Source: a virus (lineage: Duplodnaviria; Heunggongvirae; Uroviricota; Caudoviricetes). From it: a stretch of DNA of 21,446 nt. Each line of letters opens with the position of its first letter. Position 1 is the first letter of the stretch. Positions 6,001 to 9,000 of this stretch are shown piece after piece. The stretch lies in the IMG/VR virus record IMGVR_UViG_2671180360_000006. One strand, written 5' to 3'. A program made the position numbers.

Positions 6001-9000
6001 CCCACGGCTGTTGCCACATTATCAATCTGTCCGGCAACACCGTTCAGCGCACCGGAGAGCGTTTTCGTCACCCCGCTGGCCTCATTCGCACCGCCCACCC
6101 AGGCCATAAAGGCGTTTTCCACCTTCGTGATACTACTGGAAACCGTTTCCGGCATGGCCGCATATTCATCACGTAATATCCCCAGCTGGCTGATTAACGC
6201 GGGGACCACTTTATCCGCTGTCAGTTTTCCGTCATCCGCCATTGCCTTCAGATCTTTACGGGCCACGCCCATACCCGCAGCCAGTGCACGTACGATCCGG
6301 TCACCACTTTCATTGACCGAATTAAACTCCTCACCACGCAATACACCCTGCGCCAGCGCCTGACTGAACTGGGTGATCACCGAGCCCGCCTCTGCCGTAC
6401 TGGCACCGGAGATTTTCAGCCCTGTCGAAATGGCCTCCGTCACCTTCAGCACATCATCAGCACTGTAACCATATTCACGCATTGAGGCGGCTGAGCGGGC
6501 AAACAGGGCCGCATTATCCGAAAATGCGGTGCCTGTCCGCTGGCTGATATCCATCAGCACTTTCTGTGATGACGCAAATTCATCCGATGACTGCGACGCC
6601 TGTTTCAGACGGGCATTCACGGAGCTCCATTCATCCGCCAGCGAAATCAGGTGTCCGGTGGCAAAGGCACCGGCAAACGCACCGGTCATTCCGACAGCCG
6701 AAGCGCGGATTTCCGTCAACTGGCTGTTCAGCTCAGCCAGAGCCCGGCGCTGCTCCCTGGCTGCCGCAGCAGCCTGACGTCCGCCATTCTGCAGGGTCCG
6801 GTAATATTCACTGCCCATACGGGACGCCCGCTGGATCTCCGACTGGAATGACTGTGAATTTGCCGAAATTTTGATAATCAGTTCACGTAACGTCGCCATT
6901 CACCTTTCTCCGGGCGTAAAAAAACCGCCTCAGCGGTTCTCATCATTCATGACTGTGCTGCAAAGCTCAGCGCGTCTTCCAGCGCCGCAAACGGATCCAC
7001 CTCCGGCTTATCCTCATCCTCGCCCCAGCAGAGCATGGCGTCCTTCAGTGCAACATTCATCCCCTGTGCCCCGAAAACCGCTTTCACGATCTGTGCATTA
7101 CGGATATCCCCGCGCTCATCACCCAGCGGGGATACCCTGTCGAACTCCATCCACATCATCGCCTCGCTCGCACTCAGGCTGTGCCGCAGTTCGGATAAGG
7201 TGCGCCCCAGACGGAGCGCAAGTCGCATCAGAAAGCGAATTTCCGGGCGGGCTACTTTTTTCTGGCCGACTCTGCATCAGCGATCAGTTCCAGTGCCTGA
7301 CGCAGCAACCGGGCATGTACCGGACCATAGACAGCCAGCACCTGCTCACGGTCGTCCGGAGTGAACACCCGCTGCAGGTCCGTATCACACAGGACATCGC
7401 AGAACAGCGTCACATCCGCTTCCAGGTTACGGCGGGTTTTCGCCACCACCGACAGGGTATCGTCATCCTCTCCATCACCATTGAGCACTTCCTGCCACAG
7501 ATACCAGGCCTCTGCCGAAGGCTCCCGCAGCACCACGCTGACATTACCCCATTCCGGCACCTTCACCGTTTTATGACGAAACCCTGACAGTCTGGCCAGC
7601 GCCAGCGTTTTCAGATCCTTTTTCATGATGACCCATCCCCTTATCCGGCGGCTGCGCTCACTGTCACGGTGCATTCAACAGACGTCACACTCTGTGCTTT
7701 CTCTGCCGAATCGGTCACCACACAGGTATATTTCCCCGCATCAGCGGACTGCGCACCTGGCTTACTGAAGGTGTCTGTCGTCTGCCCGTCAACCGGCTGA
7801 CCATCCTTCTTCCAGGCGTATTTATACGGCGGCGTTCCCCCGTTGGCACTGACTGACATTGTCAGCAGCGCACCGGTATTCACGGTAAGTGTCTTATCCA
7901 GATTTTTCACAAACGCCAGCGGTACCACAAAGGACACCGGTTTGCCTTTCAGACGCAGTGAGAACGTTGCAGCCACCACGCCGTTGGTACCGGATGACCA
8001 GGTGTGCTGGCGCACTTCCGCCAGGAACTTAAAGCCCTTACCGGACGGAAACTGCACCTTAAACGCATACACCGTGTCATTGTCATAGGCATCACGCAGG
8101 GCGTTCTGGGCCTGATTCAGATAAAAATTACCCGACATGGAAATCTCGGACGACGCCCCCAGACCGTTGATGTTCTCCTGCTCTGTGGAGCAGAGCGTGG
8201 TCACATCAATATCCTGTTTCTGACCGGCGGTGAACTGGACTTCCTTGATGGTGCAGTCCAGGCGCAGATATTCCGCCTTATCCATAGTTTCAGCAGTCGC
8301 CGGGGCAGATGAAATCATCACCTGCGTCAGCTGTGAGCGTTCATACAAAGCAGACATTCTGCCTCCTGATAATAAAAAACCCGCACGCGGCGGGGTATGG
8401 GTTTTGTAGAAAACAGAAAAAGTCACACCGTGACCTGAAACTCCAGGGTTGCACGGTAACAGCGGTTTTCCGGAATATAGTCCTGCATTTCACTGACGGA
8501 TCCCGGGGCCAGCAGCATTATGGCTTCACGGGCGTCCTGACGTATCTGACGCGCCTGCGTCACAGTCCCGGCATAAACGTCTATCTGCACCGACACTGAG
8601 GACTCCGCCTGCCCGCCCATCACGTCCGCCGACACCGATGAAATCAGGCTGAAAACCACCCACGGAAGCGCCACCGACGGCCTGCCATCCAGCAGGGGGA
8701 CCACATACGGGTACACCTGCCCGCCGGCAAGATGCGCCAGATGAGGATACAAATCCGCCTCCGTCATCGTCTCAGTACCTCATCAATGGCCCGGTTCATC
8801 CGAGCAATCGCCACCTGTGCCGCCTGTTCACTGCGCACATCAAATGCCGGGCGCACAAACGGGTGCGGTGGCATATTCACGGTCCCCATTTCCACAAACC
8901 GCCAGTAGAAAGCATTGCGCGGGTTATCCGCCTTCATGGTGTTATCGCTGTTACCGGTGTCCGGATTAACACCCCGGATATGCACACCGGATTCCATCCC

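Follow-up and report, generated by a model that had tools for sequence, protein, structure and literature searches.

Why should nearly the same short hairpin, a GC stem closed on a 4 nt loop and followed by seven U residues, stand in two separate intercistronic gaps of a phage late operon? The DNA analyzed here, a 21,446 bp stretch from IMG/VR record IMGVR_UViG_2671180360_000006 (the window), is 95–99.8% identical to Stx-converting phages, which express their late genes from PR′ through antitermination by Q, and for which a Term-seq data set exists in strain Sakai (PMC7547250). The late genes of the window are all on the minus strand, so both copies of the motif lie on the coding strand. The repeated hairpin is probably an ordinary rho-independent terminator design located at fixed late-operon junctions, one that is already annotated in HK97 and its relatives.

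A pattern scan of the window with AACCGCNNNNGCGGTTTTTTT, allowing up to two mismatches, found exactly two matches to AACCGC-N4-GCGG-T7, both on the minus strand: site 1 at 6918–6938 (AACCGC TGAG GCGGTTTTTTT) and site 2 at 14642–14662 (AACCGC TCCG GCGGTTTTTTT). None of 100 dinucleotide-preserving shuffles of the window matched AACCGCNNNNGCGGTTTTTTT at the same tolerance, and this result, with the conservation of position described below, leads us to reject a chance origin. The near-identical stem, 4 nt loop and U7 tract that the initial annotation had reported on the coding strand of both gaps are thus borne out; the two sites agree at 21 of 23 positions, GAACCGCT..GGCGGTTTTTTTA, a slightly longer identity than it had given. 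A further occurrence of GCGGTTTTTTT at 14712..14702 was rejected as a terminator; it falls within the coding end of terL (codons ..A V F F I stop), lacks a complementary arm and is coding sequence at the same place in relatives.

Site 1 (6918..6939, minus strand) consists of the hairpin (G)AACCGC-UGAG-GCGGUU(U) and a U7 tract, and begins 8 nt past the stop codon (6949–6947) of the T segment of the G/GT tail assembly chaperone gene (6947..7228, minus strand; phrog_337 and phrog_14766). It is followed by a Shine-Dalgarno (SD) sequence, GGAG (6910–6907), and by the ATG (6899) of the tape measure gene (3657..6899, minus strand; phrog_339), the whole gap between T and the tape measure gene being 47 nt. 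Site 2 (14642..14663, minus strand; GAACCGC-UCCG-GCGGUUU and a U7 tract) occupies the 63 nt gap between the terminase large subunit gene terL (14688..16349, minus strand; stop at 14688) and the gene for a prohead protease/major capsid fusion protein (12687..14624, minus strand), where it is followed by AUUUUCAGGAGG and the GTG start codon (14624). The predicted energies of the two hairpins are −8.5 and −10.4 kcal/mol, respectively.

A third element of this kind, absent from the initial annotation, precedes the major tail protein gene (7641..8357, minus strand). This site 3 (8374..8394, minus strand) has the hairpin CCCGC-CGCGU-GCGGG (8394..8380; predicted energy −8.5 kcal/mol) and a U6 run, followed by AUUAUCAGGAGGC and the ATG at 8357, and it has in common with site 2 the U-run and SD block TTTTTTATTNTCAGGAGGC. 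The stems of sites 1–3 are 5–7 bp long with 4–5 GC pairs, their loops are 4–5 nt, and all are on the minus (coding) strand; the U7, U7 and U6 runs directly abut the stems of sites 1, 2 and 3, respectively, on the coding strand only. At −8.5 to −10.4 kcal/mol the three are weak to moderate hairpins, and because the stems are short their termination efficiency may be modest.

Three other terminator-like hairpins were found, all on the minus strand, with stem-loops at 2616..2599, 993..978 and 19326..19307. One (2593..2616; (G)CCCACC-GUCA-GGUGGG(U) and U6) lies directly past minor tail gene L at the border of an inserted arc/ant module; another (972..993; CCCAGC-UUCG-GCUGGG and U6) lies after the ant gene and before a K-like minor tail gene, with A-UCAGGAG and the ATG (958) of that gene on its 3′ side; the last (19301..19326; UGCCUCGC-AGAU-GCGGGGCA and U5) falls between an Rz-like spanin gene and a Rha/anti-repressor-like gene. 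A GC hairpin of a different sort, without a U-run, lies immediately after the capsid gene stop codon (12689–12687) and before a small conserved ORF (12651..12672, minus strand; core GGGAGGC-GUGC-GCCUCCC). It is strong (−17.1 kcal/mol, z −4.9), and relatives have GGGCGGGG-GAAA-CCCCGCC and variants of it at the same place.

A motif search across related prophages, a check that the initial annotation had proposed, found each site kept at its own junction, distant relatives included. The distinct upstream sequences of homologs were scored for a hairpin with a U-run within 70 nt upstream of the start codon. Such an element is present in 26 of 26 sequences upstream of the tape measure gene (homologs 49–100% identical in amino acid sequence to the N-terminal query) and in 26 of 26 upstream of the major tail gene (36–100% identity). 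Upstream of the capsid gene it is present in 25 of the 26 sequences at 55% identity or more (11/11 at 90% or above and 14/15 at 55–90%), and site 2 is kept in 80 close relatives as well as in 16 prophages from other genera of enterobacteria. It is nearly missing before other late genes: one of 39 homologs has it upstream of portal and one of 19 upstream of g148 (ORFs are named by their length in amino acids), and no case was found upstream of terS (0/28), terL (0/34), the 407 amino acid ORF (0/35), g108 (0/35), g116 (0/20) or g114 (0/24). Only junctions with a real gap carry the elements, and the distance to the start codon, which spans the SD sequence, is always 13–23 nt.

The stems vary among relatives in a way that keeps them paired. 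In the site 2 alignment 99.2% of cells are paired, against 32–56% when the 3′ partner is slid, and there are two compensatory pairs (AACCGC/GCGGTT vs ACCCGC/GCGGGT vs CCCCGC/GCGGGG) while the loops vary freely. At the tape measure sites, where homologs carry stems as different as CCGC, CCCGC, CCCAC, GCCC and CCTGC, 91.8% of cells are paired (40–52% in the slid controls), with three compensatory pairs in nine cells and a covariation score of 0.316 vs 0.150 in shuffles. To judge from these alignments, what is conserved at the junctions is structure, not sequence. The U-run is retained in every tape measure and major tail ortholog, and the post-capsid hairpin is kept without one, which indicates selection for the U-run itself at these junctions.

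Terminators have been marked before at two of these places in another group of phages. The GenBank records of HK97 (NC_002167), HK75 (HM173637), HK544 (NC_019767) and HK542 (JQ086373) carry "terminator" features at the same tail junctions. In HK97-type late operons these putative terminators (Juhala et al. 2000) lie before the major tail gene, which follows a gp11-like tail terminator gene, and directly upstream of the tape measure gene; sites 3 and 1, respectively, have the same placement next to orthologous genes, and the N-terminus of the tape measure protein is 81% identical to those of HK75 and HK106 (78–81% across HK75, HK106 and HK544). The build is also alike, with a GC stem, a 4–6 nt loop, a U6–8 run and then an SD sequence and start codon. 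They differ in that the stem is ACCCGC in HK97, HK75 and HK544 and AACCGC in the window, and in that the window has no gp15 gene ahead of the tape measure terminator; site 2 has no HK97 counterpart because the head module, with its terL and protease/capsid fusion genes, differs in gene order. Unlike the HK97-type records, the Stx phage records that were examined (e.g. phage 2851, FM180578) leave the hairpins unannotated. A literature search found no specific report of terminators ahead of genes for major tail or tape measure proteins.

At the sequence level these elements have what an intrinsic terminator has: a GC-rich stem-loop on the transcribed strand, an abutting U-run and compensatory evolution. 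It seems probable that at least sites 1–3 and the hairpins after L and before K are rho-independent terminators resident in late-gene leaders and read through by Q-modified polymerase, with the capsid, major tail, tape measure and K leaders each carrying one hairpin as a fixed resident part. The proposal in the initial annotation of intrinsic terminators within a Q-antiterminated operon is supported by their anatomy, their strand and junction specificity, their position-specific covarying conservation across genera and the existing HK phage annotation; termination itself, read-through by Q and a role in insulation would follow by analogy with established lambdoid biology. In late-operon RNA the 5–7 bp GC stem with its tetraloop would form just ahead of the U6–U7 run, and ordinary RNA polymerase would be released about 10–20 nt short of the next start codon, so that a terminated transcript would not include the next ribosome-binding site. 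During lytic growth, polymerase modified by Q at PR′ (outside the window) would pass all of the hairpins and make the operon as one transcript, and in the lysogen the hairpins would keep unmodified polymerase out of the capsid and tail genes. Spurious promoters could supply such polymerase, as could independently expressed morons lodged just upstream of the hairpins; no σ70-like promoter is predicted on the coding strand within the structural genes, and so in this window the transcription to be blocked is hypothetical. If Q-modified polymerase ignores the hairpins, their strict conservation would have to be explained by some advantage in the lysogen or in the RNA itself. In read-through RNA the hairpins would probably also serve, secondarily, as passive 3′ barriers and insulate the ribosome-binding sites structurally.

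The logic resembles that of λ tR′, a late-operon intrinsic terminator that is passed only by Q-modified polymerase (PMC7547250; PMC2629481). Unlike tR′, which gates its operon from the head, the hairpins of the window lie inside the structural gene cluster. It counts against the terminator reading that λ does without a terminator ahead of V or H; its T and H genes overlap. Hairpins bracket the capsid and major tail genes in the window and in HK97 and HK542, which recalls Tφ after gene 10 of phage T7 and the hairpin after λ gene E. Those two elements are downstream of an abundantly expressed gene and raise its relative expression, but sites 2 and 3 lie upstream of such genes.

This bracketing speaks for an alternative that we consider unlikely, that the main job of the hairpins is in mRNA processing or stability. 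They would guard the 3′ ends of upstream segments after cleavage in the AU tract or after partial termination, 5′-proximal hairpins might also protect the downstream segment, and parts of the late transcript would then differ in half-life. Site 2 and the strong, conserved U-less hairpin enclose the capsid gene, and sites 3 and 1 enclose the major tail, G and T genes. In HK97 and HK542 the capsid and major tail genes each have a hairpin on either side, λ retains the one after E, and the U/A-rich tract past the stem resembles an RNase E target sequence. A protective hairpin needs no U-run, however, and the phage does use a U-less hairpin elsewhere, yet an abutting U-run stands at every tape measure and major tail ortholog. 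Furthermore, site 2 would mainly stabilize the terminase message and site 3 that of the connector genes, both of which specify low-copy products.

The fixed position beside the SD sequence is equally compatible with a role in translation. Here the hairpin would shield the downstream ribosome-binding site from pairing with upstream coding RNA, and the U-rich tract would be an enhancer that binds ribosomal protein S1 or a standby ribosome for genes uncoupled from their upstream neighbor. The restriction of the elements to real gaps at a set distance from the start codon, the U-run and SD block common to sites 2 and 3, and leaders that co-vary with the downstream rather than the upstream gene would all suit such modules. 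Nevertheless, the tape measure protein is needed in few copies but its gene has the same module as those of the capsid and major tail proteins, an S1 enhancer requires no stem abutting the U-run, and the same motif is widespread at ordinary gene ends; short gaps, and the requirement that any inserted moron come before the hairpin, also explain the placement. On balance this role appears improbable as the main one.

The initial annotation had also raised the possibility of attenuators that set stoichiometry. Leaky elements that act even on Q-modified polymerase could step transcription down along the operon, and site 1, between high-copy (major tail, chaperone) and low-copy (tape measure, tail tip) genes, would be well placed for this, and the weak to moderate strength of the hairpins would suit it. 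Sites 2 and 3, however, are directly upstream of the genes for the two most abundant virion proteins, and attenuation at site 2 would lower capsid protein relative to terminase, which is the wrong direction. In addition, Q-modified polymerase is terminator-resistant over long distances, and λ late protein ratios are reportedly set by translation initiation on a uniform transcript. This part of the proposal fits poorly at site 2, and we give it still less weight than a role in translation.

The two copies, so alike in one genome, might instead stem from a small DNA element, mobile or recombinogenic, that was copied between junctions (a MITE/REP-like repeat or a module "linker"). Relatives do show discordant terL and capsid identities that suggest a mosaic joint near site 2 (78–84% vs 58–75% for L081, L090 and L095, and 59–67% vs 67–77% for the others). 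The flanks of the two copies are unrelated, however, the three junctions carry different stems in other genomes, and each copy in the window has positional orthologs of its own: the site 1 leader matches that of Salmonella phage FSL SP-016 at 27 of 31 nt, and a compensatory change separates the E. coli form of site 2 from that of other genera. An exact-motif scan of IMG/VR located all 17 specified bases in at least 120 viral contigs, and most of the matches listed are in unrelated contexts of many kinds, as would be expected of a favored terminator design in which a CCGC stem closes on a UUCG-type loop. The small mobile motif suggested by the initial annotation is thus very unlikely.

Least likely of all is that the T and terL messages give rise at their 3′ ends to IsrK-like, Hfq-binding small RNAs that end at these sites. 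A Rfam scan gave no gathering-level match to any family anywhere in the window; both sites fall within isrK (RF01394) matches, but these score 27.1 bits (6985..6918) and 18.1 bits (14727..14642), far under the gathering threshold of 50, and their aligned identity amounts essentially to the terminator, so isrK was rejected as the family of either site. A hairpin with a U-tail is an Hfq-binding module according to work cited in PMC4104026 (Otaka 2011; Ishikawa 2012), and IsrK of Gifsy-1 is alike in its terminator stem and U-tail (AgcCGC..GCGgcUUUUUU), but it is a leader RNA directly downstream of a Q-like gene, and sites 1 and 2 lie between structural genes with upstream sequence that is coding and not conserved as RNA structure. 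Reported EHEC/EPEC prophage sRNAs map near PR′ and the lysis genes, HnrS being placed only "within the late genes" of other prophages; the AsxR/AgvB anti-sRNAs, StxS, the Pas sRNAs and HnrS were all rejected as candidates, since they are published near PR′ or the lysis genes or without coordinates and none is tied to these junctions.

If the elements are terminators, their relation to morons deserves comment. Morons, known examples of which are HK97 gene 15 and λ lom/bor, have been described as units that each bring a promoter and a terminator of their own, and the T/tape measure junction, where gene 15 is placed, is the classical moron site (PMC3594210). It is occupied by an ORF in relatives L081, L145, HK75, HK544 and FSL SP-016. 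In the window no extra ORF is present in the T/tape measure or terL/capsid gap and no promoter-like site was found on the minus strand near either; with neither an ORF nor a σ70 promoter of their own, the two gaps are not morons. Where the T/tape measure junction does hold a moron (HK97 gp15 and others), the insert lies upstream of the hairpin, and the hairpin remains beside the tape measure ribosome-binding site. Hairpin and leader are homologous in empty and occupied junctions, which indicates that the terminator travels with the tape measure leader and not with the insert. It is conceivable, though we hold it only tentatively, that the terminators of the capsid, major tail and tape measure leaders are older than the morons and have served as ready-made docking sites for cassettes, which would explain why the T/tape measure junction is a recurrent moron hotspot. 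A promoter and ORF inserted between the upstream stop codon and the hairpin would then become an insulated, lysogen-expressed unit without bringing a terminator of its own, and the view of morons as self-contained promoter-gene-terminator units would need revision.

The conservation of these hairpins points to no new kind of mechanism. For annotation, it adds at least three regulatory features that are missing from Stx phage (Pankowvirus-type) records and present in HK97-type records, and it makes a modest addition to the moron concept, in that the terminator stays with the leader of the downstream gene whether a moron is present or absent. If the hairpins do stop unmodified polymerase, they would be part of a safety system that silences the virion genes of Stx-converting prophages in lysogens, and inserted cargo genes could be expressed there without switching on the tail genes.

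The window DNA is 95–99.8% identical to that of long-tailed Stx-converting phages (2851, YYZ-2008, JLK-2012, BP-4795, and many Stx1a/Stx2 phages). In such phages PR′ drives the late genes under Q antitermination (PMC7547250); Q and PR′ both lie outside the window. An ORF survey found every long ORF of the morphogenetic region on the minus strand, and PHROG scans gave a gene order that starts with holin, endolysin, and Rz, followed by genes for a Rha/anti-repressor-like protein and an HNH endonuclease, and continues, with all coordinates on the minus strand, through terS (16909–16346), terL (16349–14688), a prohead protease/major capsid fusion (14624–12687), portal (12475–11111), a 407-aa ORF and four head-tail connector genes, the major tail protein gene (8357–7641), and G (7626–7252), T (7228–6947), the tape measure gene (6899–3657), M, L, an inserted arc/ant pair, and a K-like gene. 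The portal region consists of two minus-strand ORFs of 454 aa (12475–11111) and 407 aa (11114–9891) with a 4-nt overlap; phage 2851 has a single annotated 859-aa portal CDS, some E. coli proteins are 723–784 aa, and in other genera a portal of 444–452 aa is followed by a separate homolog of the 407-aa ORF. Either fusion or split could be the derived state. The stretch that separates terS from the HNH endonuclease gene contains, at 16980–17110 and 17130–17200, five direct and inverted copies of (A)TGTTAAC(TG) and, reading the minus strand, a G8 run (17188–17181) and a C7 run (17146–17140) about 35 nt apart; these are candidate terminase-binding or cos sites for HK97-style HNH-dependent packaging.

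A motif search of the window for AACCGC-N4-GCGG-T7 returned exactly two matches, 6918–6938 and 14642–14662, both on the minus strand and in agreement with the initial annotation in position, strand, loop size, and U7 tract; 100 shuffles of the window gave no match with two mismatches tolerated. The first (site 1; predicted −8.5 kcal/mol) begins 8 nt past the stop codon of T, with its end 18 nt ahead of the tape measure ATG, and the second (site 2; predicted −10.4 kcal/mol) lies within the 63-nt gap separating terL from the capsid gene, its end 17 nt ahead of the GTG start. A second occurrence of GCGGTTTTTTT at 14702–14712 (minus strand), 40 nt upstream of site 2, resembles half of a terminator but is not one: these bases encode the last residues of terL (..A V F F I stop), and a complementary arm is absent. 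Another such hairpin, site 3, precedes the major tail gene (8394..8374, minus strand; CCCGC-CGCGU-GCGGG-U6-AUUAUCAGGAGGC-AGA-AUG) and has the block UUUUUUAUUNUCAGGAGGC in common with site 2. A coding-strand scan of the window found further minus-strand hairpins with U-runs after Rz (19326..19307), after L (2616..2599), and before K (993..978; CCCAGC-UUCG-GCUGGG-U6-A-UCAGGAG-N6-AUG). From terS to M, gaps of more than about 20 nt occur at just four gene junctions; all four contain a GC hairpin, three of them with a U-run. A strong hairpin lacking a U-run (−17.1 kcal/mol) lies just past the capsid stop codon, directly downstream of the SD of a small conserved ORF (MAKIRYLQ...; 12421–12642, minus strand) situated after the capsid gene and before the portal gene. 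The stop codon of this ORF in relatives is a TAA or TGA that overlaps the portal ATG; the window has GAA at that position, and the ORF extends 18 codons into the portal gene. The window's strongest terminator-like hairpin (20561–20587, minus strand; 11 bp with 7 GC pairs, then U5GU4) has the holin gene downstream and ORF 21426–20953, with PHROG matches only to families of unknown function, upstream; it is probably the terminator of an upstream cargo gene. A terminator-like hairpin inside the M coding sequence (3443–3462, minus strand; GGCAUGGU-GGUU-ACCGUGCC with U5) may be a chance occurrence or may serve as an internal signal.

Among 80 close IMG/VR relatives, site 2 varies only in its loop (UCCG/UGCG), in a single stem-base substitution, A to G, which preserves pairing as G-U, and in U-run length (6–8); adjacent spacer positions are variable. 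A portal-profile scan of a genome collection supplied a more distant set of 16 prophages of other enterobacterial genera (Enterobacter, Kosakonia, Pantoea, Phytobacter, Atlantibacter, Kluyvera, Citrobacter, Erwinia, Morganella, Rouxiella, and others) with gene order identical to the window and 58–77% capsid identity. All 16 carry (A)CCCGC-N4-GCGGG(U)-U5-6-CGUUUC[AU]GGAG ahead of the capsid start, with seven loop variants and an unconserved upstream spacer. In the alignment 99.2% of cells are paired, versus 32–56% with slid partners, and compensatory changes occur at two pairs. In most alphaproteobacterial relatives the hairpin before the capsid gene is missing. Three related loci (L081, L090, L095) have terL 78–84% but capsid 58–75% identical to the window, and the remaining loci (L082–L094) have terL 59–67% and capsid 67–77% identical; these discordant values suggest a recombination joint at the hairpin between terL and the capsid gene or close to it.

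The tail module is HK97-like, and tape measure N-termini are 81% (HK75, HK633, HK106), 78% (HK544), 62% (HK542), 73% (an Aeromonas phage), and 43% (a Halomonas phage) identical to that of the window. The search across relatives found a hairpin and U-run in all 26 distinct sequences upstream of tape measure homologs, ending 13–23 nt before the start, and in all 26 distinct sequences upstream of major tail homologs. The tape measure stems include AACCGC, ACCCGCU, CCCAC, AGCCC, AACCUGC, GCCCGC, and CCCCGC, with covariation at three pairs. The identical detector applied upstream of terS, terL, portal, the 407-aa ORF, and the four connector genes found 0–1 per 19–39 sequences.

This kind of element is already known from HK97-type annotation. 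The HK97 reference record has seven forward-strand "terminator (putative)" features within the late operon, including 6692..6719 before the major tail gene (compare site 3) and 8398..8422 after the gene 15 moron and ahead of the tape measure gene (compare site 1). The records of HK75, HK544, and HK542 mark "rho-independent terminator" features at those junctions; that of phage 2851, close to the window, has none. In λ, neither V nor H is preceded by such an element, T overlaps H, and there are only terminators around lom and a hairpin that follows E.

The hairpins are most likely functional intrinsic terminators, read through by Q-modified polymerase in lytic growth, and the initial annotation, which had offered weak intrinsic terminators as one option, is largely right. 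The analysis shows how the hairpins are built, that they are confined to the coding strand and to particular junctions, that their stems covary and the U-run is kept, and that such sites were annotated before; termination itself, Q read-through, and an insulation benefit are inferred from established lambdoid biology. Q-modified polymerase would pass the hairpins during lytic growth, and in the lysogen they would halt unmodified transcription ahead of the next RBS. Roles as stability or processing elements, RBS-leader modules, or sRNA 3′ ends are rivals, several of which could coexist with termination. Leaky attenuation, a further rival proposed earlier as a means of setting stoichiometry, fits site 1, but at sites 2 and 3 it would act opposite to the stoichiometry required. 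The suggestion of a small mobile motif is not supported: outside the hairpin and U-run the two window copies have no sequence in common. The stems at the three junctions differ in other genomes; the exact motif occurs in at least 120 IMG/VR contigs, and among the matches listed most of 93 instances have unrelated surroundings or precede other tape measure genes, UUCG being the commonest loop. Site 1 and the leader of Salmonella phage FSL SP-016 agree at 27 of 31 nt, and a compensatory change from A-U to C-G distinguishes the ACCCGC form of site 2 from the E. coli form. Thus, with unshared flanks, junction-specific stems, a widespread motif, and site-specific orthology, the likeness is best read, from these comparisons, as two independent instances of a favored terminator design (CCGC core, AA pairing into the U-run, UUCG-like tetraloop).

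HK97 gene 15, at the T–tape measure junction, was the first insert to be called a moron (PMC3594210). The space between T and the hairpin holds an additional ORF in HK75, HK544, FSL SP-016, related loci L081 and L145, and Aeromonas, Klebsiella, and Halomonas phages, and the junction is empty in the window, HK542, L082, L084, L086, and L185; in both states the hairpin adjoins the tape measure RBS and is homologous between them. A small ORF starting MEILLVSIVIGLIPALIAQSKGRSFFAWW, likely encoding a membrane protein, is present there in L081 (~10731–11170), L145 (~13060–13550), and L163 (2619–2954), and other relatives have HK97 gp15-like or unrelated ORFs. This slot holds at least five different inserts, the conserved terminator always lying downstream. 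Between minor tail genes L and K (1013–2608) the window carries an Arc-like regulator gene (2264–2608, plus strand) and an anti-repressor Ant gene (2059–1013, minus strand), bounded by the terminator-like hairpins with U-runs at 2616..2599 and 993..978. The pair sits within a siphovirus tail operon and is similar to the "ant moron" known from P22-like phages (PMC2629481). As a modest comparative point, terminators resident in gene leaders are candidate docking sites for morons.
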